Of a DNA stretch of 64,000 bases, positions 551-51,836 are shown piece by piece; positions within the stretch are counted from its first letter, which is position 1; every line of letters starts with the position of its first letter. Both the position numbers and the translations under genes were made by a program. The DNA is from Candidatus Dadabacteria bacterium (GTDB lineage: Bacteria; Desulfobacterota_D; UBA1144; Nemesobacterales; CSP1-2): contig CAWDVW010000007.1 in the NCBI GenBank assembly GCA_963805855.1, positions 391,457 to 455,456 of the forward strand, written 5' to 3'. Under the pieces are notes generated by a model. That model was not told where the DNA came from. It was given only the letters and a program-made list of their open reading frames with translations, and did no database searches.

Positions 551-578
551 GTAGGGAACGCATATATGCGTTCCCTAC
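551..578. repeat. Perfect 28-bp palindrome GTAGGGAACGCATATATGCGTTCCCTAC (REP-like hairpin, 12-bp stem and 4-nt loop), copy 1
   Basis: Read directly in the sequence. The identical sequence recurs at 13642-13669. Variants occur at 32416-32443 (loop GATC) and 7699-7748 (loop replaced by a 26-nt insert). It lies between the gloB stop and the metH start. Confidence 0.9.
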
Positions 579-7472: not shown

Positions 7473-7698
7473 ATAATCTTATTTTAGATTTCAATATAAC
7501 AAGTTTTTATATTTATGAAAAGGCTTGTATGCGATAAATTAGTCAAGCAATCGCAAAAACAGATTGCCCCCATCACCACCCCGAGTGAAATAGTCCTGTA
7601 ATATTTTCGTTGCACCTGTTCCCGCAATTGTAGATGTTAGATACTGCGAGGATAGTCCCTTAGGTGCTAAATGGGCCTTCAAAAATGCCGACGAATTC

Positions 7699-7748
7699 GT
7701 AGGGAACGCATCCTTCGACCGAGCTCAGGACAGGTCTGCGTTCCCTAC
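7699..7748. repeat. Palindrome copy with a nested insert: GTAGGGAACGCA-[TCCTTCGACCGAGCTCAGGACAGGTC]-TGCGTTCCCTAC
   Basis: Both palindrome arms are intact. The 4-nt loop is replaced by a 26-nt module that also occurs at 13286-13307 and 51556-51578. Confidence 0.85.
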
Positions 7749-7768
7749 ATTTCGCCTCATATAATTTG

Positions 7769-7837
7769 TTGGTAACGCTCTGCTAATGTTAAAGGAGGTT
7801 GCTTCGACCGACAAAGTCAGTCTCGCAATGACATGAG
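7769..7837 (-). repeat. Element-1 repeat copy (TGTCATTGCGAGA...CGAAGCAACCTCC...CATTAGCAGAGCG), reverse orientation, adjacent to the palindrome
   Basis: The reverse complement aligns with copies at 29577-29632, 30048-30100, 30133-30200 and 32464-32530. Confidence 0.8.
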
Positions 7838-8026
7838 AGACCACTTCTACTGGTACCGATCCTTTAAACCTAGCCTGAGACTTATTGATTAAATTAATTC
7901 CTTCTTATTGAAATGCCTTCGTCCATTGAGTTAAATATAGCCTATTGAAAATTTAAAATAAAAAAGGACCAATTATTGGTTTAGTATTTTTTTAAGTCAT
8001 ATTTATCCACATAGAAATAATTCTCG

Positions 8027-12700: not shown

Positions 12701-13263
12701 AGCTGGAGCTAAATCATCGCATAACAGATCAGGATTTGGTCTCAGCCTTTCTTTATCCGGGAGTCTTTGAAGAATTCGATAAGCATAGGACGCTCTACGG
12801 AGACATTTCTGTCGTTCCCACATCCGCGTTCTATTATGGGATGGAGCCAGGAGAAGAGACCACTTTAGAGATTGAGGAAGGCAAAACGATTCTCGTAAAG
12901 CTTTTTGCCATTGGGGAAAGCGAGCCTGATGGAAGGGTGCCACTACTGTTTGAGGTTAATGGTCAGCCTCGACCGGTGAGGGTGTTGGATAAATCAGCTA
13001 CAGGCGCATCTATAAAGGCTAGACCAAGAGCAGACATAAAAAACCCTCTGGAAGTTGGGGCACCGCTAGGCGGCAAGGTAGTGAATCTGCTTGTTAAAGA
13101 GGGGGATAAAATAAGCCACGATCAGCCCTTGTTTACGATAGAAGCGATGAAGATGAGAACTAATATCAAAGCCATAAATGAGGGCGTTGTTTCGAAGGTT
13201 CTAATATCCGAGGGGGACAGTGTTGACGCGGGGGAGCTAGTTCTACGGCTGTCTGATGAATGA
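9784..13263 (+). CDS. pyc: Pyruvate carboxylase, single-chain (biotin carboxylase, carboxyltransferase and biotinyl domain)
   Basis: 1159 aa. The N-terminal BC domain reads ILVANRGEIAIRV. The TIM-barrel CT domain contains HFHTHATSGNG. The C-terminal biotin attachment site is EAMKM. Confidence 0.95.
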   Translation: MHSKPKFRKKVKHFQRVLVANRGEIAIRVFRACTELGINTVAIYSEEDSFSLHRSKADEAYLIGKDKGPVEAYLDIDGIISLAIEKNVDAIHPGYGFLSENPDLARACIDAGISFIGPPPEVTELMGDKAAARRLATRSGVPIVPGTEGFVENDEQAIKFSRGAGFPVIIKAAHGGGGRGIRINYDQKSLIENLPQARSEAKAAFGSDAVLLEKYIENPKHVEVQVLGDQYGNVIHLFERDCSVQRRHQKVTELAPALTLDRDFKERIYDAALRLSNAANYTSAGTVEFLVDLKGNFYFIEMNTRIQVEHTVTELITGVDLVQAQIRIAEGHRLHDPQTGIPRGSALRCNGYALQCRITTEDPTNNFTPDIGRLIAYRSPGGFGIRLDAASAYVGAAITPYYDSMLVKVTSWGLTFDQCVKKMDRALQEFRIRGVKTNIPFLIKLIRHPVFKRGECTTSFLQDHPEVFDIKEPRDRATRLLNFIGDVTINQSLKKPKTWEEHPPLRPILPSTDHNRSVVPEHRQVFDREGPEGLSKWILKQKRLLVTDTTFRDAHQSLLATRLRTYDMHNIAKATGHLGRNIYSFEMWGGATFDVCLRFLKECPWNRVSKLRESMPHAILQMLLRGANAVGYANYPDNIVREFIREAARCGIDLFRIFDCFNWIPNMKVSIETALDTGKIVEAAICYSGDITDPKRDKYTLKYYVDLARELSKMHVHLIAIKDMAGLCKPFAAEKLVRAIKEETGLPLHFHTHATSGNGEATVLKAAEAGADIVDSAISSLSGLTSQPSLNAVVAALEGTERDTLIDVKDLNKLSTYWEAVRGYYAPFEGDMKSSNADVYLYEIPGGQYTNLRSQAQLLGLGDRWEDIKQMYAEANKLFGDIIKVTPSSKAVGDMALFLVQNDLKPDDVIEKADQLTFPKSVIDMMEGHLGQTLGGFPPDIQKAILRDKTPINVRPGELIPPADFNGNRKRLELELNHRITDQDLVSAFLYPGVFEEFDKHRTLYGDISVVPTSAFYYGMEPGEETTLEIEEGKTILVKLFAIGESEPDGRVPLLFEVNGQPRPVRVLDKSATGASIKARPRADIKNPLEVGAPLGGKVVNLLVKEGDKISHDQPLFTIEAMKMRTNIKAINEGVVSKVLISEGDSVDAGELVLRLSDE

Positions 13264-13276
13264 AGTGATACGTATG

Positions 13277-13334
13277 GAACACATATCCTTCGACTACGCT
13301 CAGGACAGGTATGCGTTCCCAGGTTTTGTTTTTC
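13277..13334 (+). terminator. Rho-independent terminator for pyc, built from a degenerate palindrome/insert repeat copy
   Basis: Stem GGAACACATATCC ... GGTATGCGTTCC around a loop containing TCCTTCGACTACGCTCAGGACAG. It is followed by CAGGTTTTGTTTTTC, 14 nt after the stop codon. Confidence 0.6.
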
Positions 13335-13641
13335 AATAGATCAGGTTAACCATCGAGTATTTGAATCAGTCTACAAAATTAGCAATTAACTATTTTTCTA
13401 TAGTATTCCTTACTACTCGTACCGATATTAGTCAGATTTTCTATATCGGCTTCCCATTTTAGTGGATTATATCTGATATATTCCCTGATTTTGTTAAAGC
13501 TTCTTTCGGTTCTGATTATATGATCGTAGAATGATTTTTGCCATTGAAATTTACTATGTTCGCATGAATACCTGATTTTACGGGTAACAGATGATTTGTA
13601 TTATTGTACTATAGTCGATAATAGCATCTTTGTCCTGTTGG

Positions 13642-13669
13642 GTAGGGAACGCATATATGCGTTCCCTAC
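13642..13669. repeat. Perfect 28-bp palindrome GTAGGGAACGCATATATGCGTTCCCTAC, copy identical to 551-578
   Basis: Exact match. It lies between the convergent pyc and ICMT-methyltransferase genes and is a candidate bidirectional terminator hairpin. Confidence 0.9.
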
Positions 13670-13675
13670 ATGTAA

Positions 13676-14209
13676 TTATACATCTGTATGTCTGACTTGG
13701 TTTCTCCGTATATTGTCAAGAGCATTTTCTTCGATTTTAATTCTTCTTCGAATCAAAATCAAATTGACGATACTGAATAGTATTGACGTTAAATAACAGG
13801 AGAATATCAATGGGATGACCGCTATCTCCAATATGACTGCTATGTAATTTGGATGTTTAAGGTATTTATAGGGGCCCGTGCTTACGCGCTCGGAGCCTGG
13901 AACGACGAGGACCTTGGTATTCCAATACACCCCTAAGCTCGATATAGCCCAGTACCTGAGTATCTGGGCAATCAAAAAAATAAGCAGGAATACGAGCCAA
14001 AATTTGTTTAACTCCCTTTGAAGCGAAAATTTCTCGAGCACGAGAGAGATAAGAAAGGCAACGTGCGTGACCACAATGTACTTGTAACCATCTCTGTCGA
14101 ATTCGAGAGCCCCTTTTGATTTGACTATTTGCTCATTACGCTTTGCAAGACGTAGCTCTAGAAGGCGCTGTGAAACGAGAAGGGCGAGGAATATCCAAAA
14201 AAAGATCAT
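13676..14209 (-). CDS. ICMT-family (isoprenylcysteine carboxyl methyltransferase-like) integral-membrane methyltransferase, BpsB-like
   Basis: 177 aa, multi-TM, with a C-terminal region typical of ICMT/PEMT-family AdoMet methyltransferases. The start overlaps the type III PKS stop (ATGA). Confidence 0.7.
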   Translation of the reverse strand: MIFFWIFLALLVSQRLLELRLAKRNEQIVKSKGALEFDRDGYKYIVVTHVAFLISLVLEKFSLQRELNKFWLVFLLIFLIAQILRYWAISSLGVYWNTKVLVVPGSERVSTGPYKYLKHPNYIAVILEIAVIPLIFSCYLTSILFSIVNLILIRRRIKIEENALDNIRRNQVRHTDV

Positions 14210-29576: not shown

Positions 29577-29632
29577 TCATTGCGAGAAACGTTGTGCTTC
29601 GAAGCAATATCCTTCGGCATTGGCAGAGCGTT
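29577..29632 (+). repeat. Element-1 repeat copy (GTCATTGCGAGAAACG..TGCTTCGAAGCA..CGAAGCAATATCC..CATTGGCAGAGCGTT)
   Basis: Member of a family of six or more copies. It contains the internal palindrome TGCTTCGAAGCA. Confidence 0.8.
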
Positions 29633-29819
29633 TGATTATCCATTCCATTATAGGATTAACCTAGCAGATTGCTTCGCCAGCCGTTCGCTGTGCTCCGGCT
29701 TAGGCTCGCAATTGTAAATGTTAGATATTTCGTGGACAAAATCCTAACAAGAATAAATTTCCTGGAAATCTGCTTATCCGTCATCCTCGAATGTTTTAAT
29801 CGGGGATCCATTGTTTAAT

Positions 29820-30038
29820 CTTTCATTTTCTTTGTCTTGATACAAAGAAACAAAAATCAAGGGCTTACAAAAAATTAGGAATTATTAAATCAATTCCTCC
29901 AGCTAAAAATATTTAATCCAACCACAACCCCAAATCTTTTTTTAACGCTGGAGGAATTGATTTTGGCAATTTTTTGAATGCCCGTTTAAGAACTAAGATA
30001 CTGTCCCCGAATTACGTAACATCTACAGCAATGACAGG
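29820..30038. repeat. Copy 1 of a ~220-310 bp mosaic intergenic repeat unit (hairpin CTTTGTCTTGATACAAAG; CAAGGGCTTACAAAAAAT; TTTTTAACGCTGGAGGAATTGATTTTGGCAATTTTTTGAATGCCCGTTTAA; ACATCTACAGCAATGACAGG)
   Basis: Same module order as 51525-51836 (219 versus 312 nt, the difference being indels between modules). It contains a 17-bp perfect inverted repeat, AAATCAATTCCTCCAGC at 29887-29903 versus GCTGGAGGAATTGATTT at 29947-29963. Confidence 0.75.
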
Positions 30039-30047
30039 AATATGGCG

Positions 30048-30100
30048 TGTCATCGGGAAAAGGAAACCACGAAGCAATCTCCTCCACCTCTGGCAGAGCA
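30048..30100 (+). repeat. Element-1 repeat copy (degenerate left arm)
   Basis: ..CGAAGCAATCTCCTCCACCTCTGGCAGAGCATT.., same orientation as copies at 29577 and 30133. Confidence 0.7.
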
Positions 30101-30132
30101 TTGTGTTTTAGTTGCGATTAAGGACTTTTTAC

Positions 30133-30200
30133 TGTCATTGCGAGAAATCCCGAGCCAGATCGAAGGGCACGAAGCAATCTCCTAAAACATTGGCAGAGCG
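30133..30200 (+). repeat. Element-1 repeat copy (TGTCATTGCGAGAAATC...CGAAGCAATCTCCTAAAACATTGGCAGAGCG)
   Basis: Best-conserved copy. Together with 29577 and 30048 it forms a same-orientation three-copy cluster in the 818-bp gap upstream of the fetAB 3' end. Confidence 0.8.
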
Positions 30201-30269
30201 TCGCACAACGTGTTTTCAATGTTAGGGGGTCAAGACAATCAACGAATTGGGCGTTTTCCCCACCGGCCA

Positions 30270-32415: not shown

Positions 32416-32443
32416 GTAGGGAACGCAGATCTGCGTTCCCTAC
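32416..32443. repeat. Palindrome variant GTAGGGAACGCAGATCTGCGTTCCCTAC (loop GATC)
   Basis: The arms are identical to the copies at 551 and 13642; only the loop differs. It is followed by ACATTT...TTGGTAAC and an Element-1 copy, the same arrangement as at 7699-7837. Confidence 0.9.
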
Positions 32444-32463
32444 ATTTTTTTACATATAGTTTA

Positions 32464-32530
32464 TTGGTAACACTCTGCCTAGCGTGGAGTAGATTGCTTC
32501 GGAAAAAGCGTTTCTCGCAATGACAGTAAA
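32464..32530 (-). repeat. Element-1 repeat copy (reverse orientation), followed by a partial second copy at 32553-32595
   Basis: The reverse complement is CTGTCATTGCGAGAAACGC...CGAAGCAATCTACTCC...GGCAGAGTGTTACCAA. The partial copy is CAATGCTCTGCTAATGTTGAAGGAGAATGCTTC. Confidence 0.8.
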
Positions 32531-32757
32531 AAATATTCAATGGTAGCGGGTGGGCAATGCTCTGCTAATGTTGAAGGAGAATGCTTCAGGACTTTCTCAG
32601 TCCCTCCCAGCGCCGGGAAATTAAGAATTGACACAGTTGCATCTCCGATAGGTATGCGTTACGCTAAATGGATCGATAATGATTTTATGAAATAAGCTAT
32701 ACTCCTTCCGAGTAAAAATATATGATTTAAGAATTTAATTATAATTCATAAAACAAG

Positions 32758-51524: not shown

Positions 51525-51836
51525 TATTTACTTTGTCTTGATGCAAAGTAACAACCCTTCGACTGTGCTCAGGACAAGGGCTAACAAAAAATGCTTGCGT
51601 ATCGAGCGAATGCGAGATATCAATTGCTAAAATATTTAATTAGTTCTCTCAGTCACTTTGTTCCTTCGAGAGATGACAGTAATGATCGTCACTTTTTTTA
51701 ACGCTTCCGGAATTGATTTTGGTAATTTTTTGAATGCCCATTTAAACCAATTCAATTGGGCGAAGGTTCAGGAAATAGTGCGTTAAAAATTAAGATGTTA
51801 TCCACAAATAATGTGACATCTCCAGCAATGACTGCG
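51525..51836. repeat. Copy 2 of the ~220-310 bp mosaic intergenic repeat unit (CTTTGTCTTGATGCAAAG; CAAGGGCTAACAAAAAAT; TTTTTAACGCTTCCGGAATTGATTTTGGTAATTTTTTGAATGCCCATTTAA; ACATCTCCAGCAATGACTGCGG)
   Basis: Module order and sequence match 29820-30038. It additionally carries the TCCTTCGACTGTGCTCAGGACAAGG module seen inside the palindrome at 7711-7736. Confidence 0.75.

Follow-up and report, generated by a model that had tools for sequence, protein, structure and literature searches.

A palindrome recurs in the gaps of the window

The gap between gloB and metH at the start of this 64-kb stretch of Dadabacteria DNA (the whole stretch is referred to as the window) contains a perfect 28-bp palindrome that returns elsewhere in the same stretch, which raises the question of what kind of element it is and how its copies came to be dispersed. 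A scan of the 64-kb window located the 28-mer GTAGGGAACGCATATATGCGTTCCCTAC exactly at 551-578 and 13642-13669, together with a third short-loop copy at 32416-32443 that has the same arms and the loop GATC; the arms, GTAGGGAACGCA-N4-TGCGTTCCCTAC, are exact in all three. An earlier reading of the letters alone (referred to as the sequence-only reading) had reported these three copies and described them as having identical arms and variable loops, and both observations were reproduced. It had further listed 7699-7748 as an interrupted copy, of which the position held; the copy is, however, not broken, since it has exact 12-nt arms (7699-7710 and 7737-7748) on either side of a 26-nt loop and belongs to a recurrent long-loop variant with a 24-nt insert. 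A fifth copy at 13272-13320, degenerate and likewise long-looped (arms GTATGGAACACA ... TGCGTTCCC), was absent from that reading's list and brings the total to five copies in 64 kb, none of them inside an intact gene. The palindrome had no match in 100 dinucleotide-preserving shuffles. No Rfam family was matched at the gathering threshold in the whole window. The features of the window are as follows (REP denotes a copy of the palindrome, RAYT the associated transposase, and REPtron a RAYT gene with its flanking REPs).

551-578, no strand: REP copy with loop TATA, an exact match, 8 nt past the gloB stop and 63 nt ahead of the metH ATG.
7699-7748, no strand: long-loop REP with exact arms and a 26-nt loop, in the divergent hemB-purK gap.
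7711-7734, plus strand: 24-nt loop insert TCCTTCGAC-CGA-GCTCAGGACAGG, 8 codons long, its central triplet hypervariable among copies.
13272-13320, no strand: degenerate long-loop REP, the downstream REP of a decayed REPtron, 9 nt past the pyc stop, with the 24-nt insert at 13286-13309.
13379-13669, minus strand: RAYT (TnpAREP, Y1 HUH transposase) pseudogene, C-terminal half only, identified by tblastn, translation and alignment to an intact ortholog.
13642-13669, no strand: REP copy with loop TATA that encodes VGNAYMRSL, the start of the RAYT remnant, and marks the junction of a 275-bp deletion.
32416-32443, no strand: REP copy with loop GATC, followed by seven T; an ABC-transporter ATPase gene and ORF 32758 diverge from the gap in which it lies.

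All copies begin with a GTAG foot (5' GT[AG]G) and every full copy closes with CTAC (3' C[TC]AC, the reverse-complement foot), the two feet standing around an 8-bp stem and a self-complementary 4-nt loop. With a self-complementary loop, as all the common ones are, the palindrome forms a perfect dyad over its full 28 bases, and because it is its own reverse complement, both strands offer the same substrate. As single-stranded DNA the hairpin folds with -13.1 kcal/mol (z = -8.4), and as RNA with -20.1 kcal/mol.

The flanking genes were labelled HAGH_C (gloB, ending at 543), MetH (starting at 642), pyruvate carboxylase (ending at 13263) and ICMT (ending at 13676), with ALAD/hemB and PurK beside the copy at 7699, so that the names gloB, metH, pyc and ICMT given in the sequence-only reading were correct. 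Its statement that all copies sit in gene-free gaps applies to 551, 7699 and 32416, which lie between genes, but not to the gap between pyc and the ICMT gene, which holds the RAYT pseudogene.

The gap between pyc and the ICMT gene holds a decayed REPtron

The presence of this pseudogene at 13379-13669, opening at the copy 13642-13669, overturns the earlier claim that no RAYT or transposase gene exists in the window. On the minus strand, 13669 to 13382 aligns with the C-terminal half of the RAYT of locus L054 (tblastn E = 3e-28; L and P numbers refer to other loci and proteins), and over 96 aa the remnant is 84% identical to protein P0112 (tblastn E = 4.6e-52). The alignment begins exactly at the palindrome, here read as VGNAYMRSL. 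The remnant is without the HUH half, retains WQKSFYDHIIR and YIRYNP (WQ motif FQWQKSFYDHIIR, Y motif YIRYNP), and is interrupted by a premature in-frame stop (IVQ*YK, CAA to TAA, at 13601-13603). It is bracketed by the REPs 13272-13320 and 13642-13669, and the ICMT gene ends 6 nt from it. In the window, this REPtron is dead. No intact RAYT was found in the 64-kb window, nor did the best 120 matches of either homolog search include one from the window's own 727.6-kb contig. The lost HUH half was not found beside the other window copies, for which tblastn returned only the palindrome-coded peptide.

The contig encoding P0112 (L121) carries an intact ortholog at the same locus, in the order ICMT-side flank, REP, N-terminal half, REP, C-terminal half, short-loop degenerate REP and pyc end. 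On its left side the window REP 13642-13669 shares 87% identity with the sequence flanking L121's upstream REP, and on its right side 92% with the sequence flanking L121's internal REP, from which it follows that 275 bp (the HUH half) have gone exactly from REP to REP. This deletion could equally be the product of RecA-mediated recombination or of slippage between 28-bp repeats as of catalysis by the RAYT. In L127, a syntenic Thermodesulfobacteriota MAG with ~91% DNA identity, the gap between pyc and the ICMT gene is 58 bp long and contains one REP without a RAYT. One locus is thus found in three states, namely an intact REPtron (L121), a half-deleted REPtron (the window) and a solo REP (L127), although in L127 the RAYT may have been lost or may never have been gained. 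Half genes broken exactly at the palindrome occur in the window and in L046, L062 and L067, and annotators should be warned that RAYT genes are often split at precisely this point.

The same syntenic contig was compared with the window at two other copies. The copy 551-578 is absent at this site from L127, although this filled-versus-empty comparison is confounded by a toxin-antitoxin insertion: a PIN/RHH pair occupies the gloB-metH gap there (L127 958-1589), whereas the window has the REP alone (544-641). A clean empty site for the copy 7699 was not obtained, the centre of the hemB-purK gap being non-homologous mosaic repeat DNA in comparison with L127.

A family of Y1 transposases carries the palindrome in frame

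All ORFs within 2.5 kb of palindrome copies were clustered. RAYT was the only gene recurring with the palindrome, and a single family of ~190 aa holds it in frame, as VGNADLRSL or VGNAYMRSL. Members scored 31.2 and 25.5 bits against Pfam Y1_Tnp PF01797 (gathering cut-off 23). The best NCBIfam match, NF047646 (REP-associated tyrosine transposase, an equivalog), scored 55.1 and 57.8 bits, which is below its cut-off of 80, and the protein was therefore not filed under NF047646, a relative from another subclass. At E <= 1e-5, 2,474 homologous proteins were retrieved, and in a further search at E <= 1e-10 at least 7,912; several sources label homologs as 'REP element-mobilizing transposase RayT'. 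Recurrent peptides such as RERIYAFPT in predicted proteins are explained by the palindrome.

An AlphaFold model based on a 48-sequence alignment (pLDDT 83, pTM 0.80) had only Y1 HUH transposases among its best 30 PDB fold matches (IS608, ISDra2, IS200 and TnpAREP 4er8), with the TnpA proteins of IS608 and ISDra2 at the top. When the family profile was compared with PDB sequences, 4er8 alone was matched (E = 0.0016), and the WQ..(E/D)H..R residues of the family align with those of 4er8; according to Quentin 2018 (PMC6006769), these are the GTAG-recognition residues. The family consensus reads VMPNHIHGI / WQKSFYDHIIR / YIxNNPLKW, and the HuH motif MPNH[IV]HG is present in the consensus and in intact relatives, within the half that is deleted from the window remnant. 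Intact REPtrons were found in L121, L123, L038, L110 and L054. The palindrome-coded residues directly follow the HUH strand and have low pLDDT, as a peripheral loop would give; VGNA(Y/D)(M/L)RSL stood directly after the HUH strand in 129 of 216 family proteins sampled by protein similarity alone.

A tblastn search of plasmids yielded four distant relatives only (32-41% identity), all on non-mobilizable replicons, and no internal palindrome was detected in the three that were inspected. One of these, a RAYT of 38% identity encoded by a plasmid from a cultured Spirosoma (L158, NZ_CP087141.1), has a different double-foot REP, GTAGAGACAAGGCATGCCTTGTCTCTAC, that overlaps the stop codon of its gene at 1993-2026.

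The internal hairpin is conserved and mostly matches the extragenic copies

Where family members have other peptides at the position of the palindrome, each of these variant peptides is again encoded by a perfect palindrome:

GTAGGGGACGCAGATCTGCGTCCCCTAC, encoding VGDADLRPL: compensatory A:T to G:C swap relative to the window type.
GTAGAGACAGGTCGCGACCTGTCTCTAC and GTAGGGACAGAACAGTGTTCTGTCCCTAC: RAYT-internal, at the same position.
GGGAACAACGATCGTTGTTCCC, encoding VGNNDRCSL: in L123, internal, upstream and downstream.

The step from VGNADLRSL to VGDADLRPL, for instance, corresponds to an A:T pair becoming G:C. In the 48-sequence alignment, V-G (coded by GTAGG) is at least 90% conserved, and the stem-coded residues are variable. 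Third codon positions were 100% identical in the nine palindrome codons, as against 38% elsewhere, in six RAYT genes with 47-59% amino acid identity, a comparison biased in that an exact DNA pattern match had picked out four of the six. To judge from these sequences, it is apparently the hairpin, and not the peptide, that is conserved. Moreover, internal copies were read in one frame (VGNA..RS, 126 cases) and never in the other open frame (RER..AFP, 0 cases), and this single reading frame argues for common ancestry or constraint over repeated random insertion.

Within REPtrons, the internal and flanking palindromes are of one type. The L121 REPtron has the GGAACGCA type three times; in L123 the GGAACAAC type stands inside the gene, 70 nt upstream of it and directly after the stop; and in L122 the GGGGACGCA type stands inside the gene and recurs downstream as a partial copy. 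Beyond the REPtron itself, no further variant-palindrome copies were found within 10 kb of the RAYT genes of L122, L125 and L126. Among genomes with both extragenic copies and a whole or half RAYT, the loop of the extragenic copies was that of the RAYT-internal copy in 16 of 20 cases, examples being TATA throughout in two Thermodesulfobacteriota and Falkowbacteria MAGs, and GATC in Poribacteria.

We tentatively propose that the in-frame REP might serve as a built-in master copy, perhaps also as an autoregulatory hairpin, that keeps enzyme and substrate inherited together (horizontal transfer included) and that re-seeds or homogenises the extragenic copies. Such a role, to which we give rather less than even chances, would explain why 24 arm nucleotides are invariant in RAYT genes of 47-59% identity from more than ten phyla, why the frame is constant, why the extragenic loop tracks the internal loop genome by genome, and why gene breaks fall exactly at the internal REP. 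If the internal copy is functional, it would reveal how a domesticated transposase remains paired with its hairpin through deep time.

In-frame tandem duplications of half-sites were also seen inside the RAYT proteins P0095, P0085, P0044 and P0051, and REP doublets are common within the family. In a Spirochaetes MAG (L040, 6080-6148), the left half-site GTAGGGAACGCAATCCCCG occurs three times in tandem and is then followed by a full REP.

The palindrome is dispersed over many phyla

A collection holding one genome per species was scanned with the pattern GTAGGGAACGCA-N(2-32)-TGCGTTCCCTAC. At least 118 stretches of genome DNA, spread over more than ten phyla, contained the palindrome; the taxon labels are those of the MAG depositors, with single mis-binned contigs possible. 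The matches listed included Candidatus Poribacteria (many chromosomes), Thermodesulfobacteriota, Syntrophaceae, Aminicenantes, Elusimicrobiota and several Patescibacteria, and further Clostridia/Bacillota, a gammaproteobacterial MAG, Spirochaetes/Leptospiraceae, Dadabacteria, Omnitrophica and others. One Poribacteria chromosome had at least 12 copies, and in several MAGs the motif was on three or four contigs with a lineage-specific loop. Among the matches listed, the loops were GATC (78), TATA (22), AATT (6) and a few of 5-7 nt, and 109 of the 122 copies listed lay outside ORFs of at least 150 aa. The flanks are unrelated between genomes, and the unit is therefore the palindrome itself. Viral contigs gave no match to the palindrome, so that phage carriage is without evidence.

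Nine of the 122 copies listed form the exact middle of a larger palindrome, which extends them by 4-26 base pairs; chance would give 0.5 such cases, and the excess hints at insertion into the tips of hairpins. Examples are:

L091, 464-509.
L099, 3349-3394.
L059, 431-472.
L113.
L104.
L102, 1-80.

REPs of Poribacteria usually adjoin a 17-nt motif, TAGGA(G/C)TTACGCACTTC, which is GTAG-like (L018 2408-2453, L032 2412-2460, L037 and L083). The REP and this motif together suggest composite, BIME-like clusters.

A long-loop variant propagates alongside the short-loop form

The loops of 7699-7748 and 13272-13320 share the 24-nt insert TCCTTCGAC-NNN-GCTCAGGACAGG, which is absent from the orthologous downstream REP of L121, where the loop is short. 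In a metagenome scan, the composite GTAGGGAACGCA-TA-insert-TA-TGCGTTCCCTAC was found in 28 contigs with unrelated flanks, again with a hypervariable central triplet. Because so many contigs with unrelated flanks carry the composite, the long-loop form is a propagating REP variant and not a damaged copy.

The window holds further repeats. The 24-nt motif of the REP loops, here CCTTCGAC-NNN-GCTCAGGACA(A/G)G, also stands alone at 51555-51580 and at ~1139 of L024 (minus strand, a Falkowbacteria MAG). A second family of short intergenic repeats, with the core GGTAACGCTCTGC..GTTRAAGGAG.TTGCTTCG ... CTCGCAATGAC, is often beside a REP, is present in L127 too, and has no Rfam match at the gathering threshold:

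7768-7840, 32463-32530 and 32550-32587: second repeat family, direct orientation.
29589-29632, 30070-30103 and 30170-30201: second repeat family, inverted orientation.

A segment of ~314 bp at 29714-30027 is 88.5% identical to L127 7135-7446, in a non-syntenic place, and has partial copies at 51526-51832 and (inverted) at 7629-7685. It looks like a MITE-like mobile segment in unusually long, repeat-laden intergenic gaps.

The palindrome as the probable REP of a RAYT system

The palindrome is very probably the double-foot REP of a TnpAREP subclass 2.4 / RAYT group 4 system, of which the window holds a dead REPtron and, in its other copies, the dispersed progeny. A REP/RAYT-type element had been the leading idea of the sequence-only reading, and the GTAG foot, the multiple extragenic copies and the tie to Y1 (IS200-like) RAYT genes, here and in many genomes, bear it out. 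The same RAYT association, in the window and in many genomes, supports its view that the copies are not merely incidental terminators.

The best-surviving alternative, that the copies are RNA hairpins selected by the host as terminators or as stabilisers of mRNA 3' ends and that the link with RAYT is secondary, would be in keeping with several properties of the palindrome. Its RNA fold is stable, the copy 551-578 lies very close to the gloB stop, the copy 32416-32443 with its T run is terminator-like on both strands, and in other genomes most copies are in gaps between tandem genes (61 of the 89 classified); in addition, effects of this sort are described for E. coli REPs. However, a T run follows the copy 32416-32443 only, so that the copies do not have the make-up of intrinsic terminators, and this copy, like 7699, sits in a divergent promoter gap (two of four copies) where no transcript ends. 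Furthermore, identical 24-nt arms over unrelated contexts and phyla are not expected of terminators, and both the in-frame copy in RAYT genes and the REP-bounded deletion would be left unexplained. We therefore regard host selection as an improbable origin of the palindrome.

The symmetry of the element also calls to mind an operator, read as a perfect dyad by a dimeric protein that binds double-stranded DNA, such as a regulator or a restriction- or partition-like factor, since the dyad spans the entire 28-mer, GATC, TATA and AATT loops included. The flanking genes nevertheless have no common function, either in the window or across loci; the 12-bp arms are far longer than operator half-sites; the loops of 5-7 nt and the 24-nt inserts that are tolerated would break the dyad spacing; and the sole gene that recurs with the palindrome is RAYT, all of which makes an operator very unlikely. 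There is equally little chance that the copies are ends or remnants of a classical IS200/IS605 element or of another MITE outside the REP/RAYT class. The associated protein does share the Y1 HUH fold with its top fold matches, IS608 and ISDra2 TnpA, but a tnpB partner and distinguishable left and right ends are both lacking, one and the same GTAG palindrome both flanks and interrupts the gene, and the motifs are those of TnpAREP subclass 2.4 rather than TnpAIS200, the only sequence-level relative in the PDB being TnpAREP 4er8. Solo 28-bp copies with unrelated flanks also mean that there is no longer MITE body. Finally, an assembly or sequencing artefact (fold-back chimeras or collapsed reads) can practically be dismissed: the L102 copy, 27 nt from a contig end and central in an 80-bp perfect palindrome, could have arisen by fold-back during assembly, but the motif is not confined to the window, copies lie inside long-read complete chromosomes, the orthologous position has a copy in three independent assemblies (the window, L121 and L127), and in-frame copies are found in thousands of predicted proteins from independent sources.

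In the REP/RAYT system, a gene for a Y1 HUH transposase of ~180-200 aa carries one REP in frame, in the loop after the HUH strand, and usually has the same REP on its flanks as well, which makes it a REPtron. If the enzyme works like E. coli TnpAREP and IS608, it would bind the hairpin extruded on single-stranded DNA, read the GTAG foot, and cut and rejoin next to the hairpin. Such cutting and rejoining may scatter copies into intergenic DNA and cause rearrangements from REP to REP. In the window, the HUH half of the REPtron was removed by an exact deletion from upstream REP to internal REP. The copies 551, 7699 and 32416 would be dispersed progeny that are now immobile unless the genome holds another RAYT and that, when transcribed, would act only as stable RNA hairpins.

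Ideas on how REPs spread still rest largely on in-vitro experiments with a single E. coli enzyme. The present system offers unusually clean natural material, with a perfectly symmetrical REP, an enzyme gene containing its own in-frame substrate, a three-step decay series, and a REP conserved over distant phyla.

Comparison with known systems

The E. coli system of REP/BIME and TnpAREP (RayT/YafM, 4er8; PMC3333891, PMC3479197) resembles the one described here in its GTAG foot, in its Y1 HUH enzyme with aligned WQ..(E/D)H..R residues, in its REPtron layout, and in the loss of tnpAREP from some lineages. In vitro, the E. coli enzyme cleaves single strands of REP/BIME DNA and recombines them, such proof being available for E. 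coli only (PMC3333891). E. coli REPs differ in having a single foot, imperfect bulged stems and an arrangement in BIME pairs, and the E. coli enzyme is of subclass 2.2, without an in-frame REP and of marginal sequence similarity (the profile match to 4er8 given above).

The transposases of IS200/IS605 elements (TnpA of IS608 and ISDra2) share the fold and presumably act on single-stranded hairpins by the same chemistry, whereas the present system is without an IS body, tnpB, or distinct left and right ends. Integron attC sites were rejected on sequence grounds alone, their purine/pyrimidine pattern being reversed, and CRISPR repeats, dif sites and sequencing adapters were rejected on sequence grounds alone as well.

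REPIN sequences are lineage-specific. The REPIN/RAYT systems of Pseudomonas (PMC3116915) are similar in that a domesticated RAYT, usually single-copy, is believed to copy short palindromic repeats. REPINs are, however, inverted REP doublets in one long hairpin, whereas the element studied here is a single perfect palindrome, identical in many phyla, and REPINs are mostly vertically inherited according to the REPIN literature. A REPIN was rejected as the identity of the element, the copies being single 28-bp palindromes and the long-loop form having an asymmetric 24-nt insert without a second REP.

The closest system is TnpAREP subclass 2.4, defined in 2018 by Quentin, Siguier, Chandler and Fichant (PMC6006769) and equivalent to the RAYT group 4 that Bertels et al. 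2017 (PMC5581495) described. Its signature is NH[IFV]H, WQ and YIxNNP in a protein of ~194 aa, its double-foot REP is defined by 5' GT[AG]G and 3' C[TC]AC, it includes REPs inserted in frame within the transposase gene, and its distribution is patchy, consistent with horizontal transfer (PMC6006769). The family described here shares the NH[IFV]H, WQ and YIxNNP motifs, a length of ~190 aa, an in-frame REP in the beta3-alphaC variable insertion, the double foot, and patchy occurrence over phyla. The family consensus fits the subclass 2.4 signature, and the element therefore belongs to a described kind. It differs in its hosts, which are Thermodesulfobacteriota, Poribacteria, Aminicenantes, Patescibacteria and others as against the Cyanobacteria, Bacteroidetes and Chlorobia emphasised in those papers, and in two features not described there, the invariance of the arms over RAYTs of ~50% identity and the variant with a 24-nt loop insert. 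A full-text literature search gave no match to the 12-mer arm (the GGAACGCA stem), and neither the supplements of Quentin 2018 nor the text of Di Nocera 2013 contain it. To our knowledge, what goes beyond earlier texts is the very broad host range, the invariant arms over RAYTs that are themselves only ~50% identical, the decay series bounded by REPs, and the long-loop variant.
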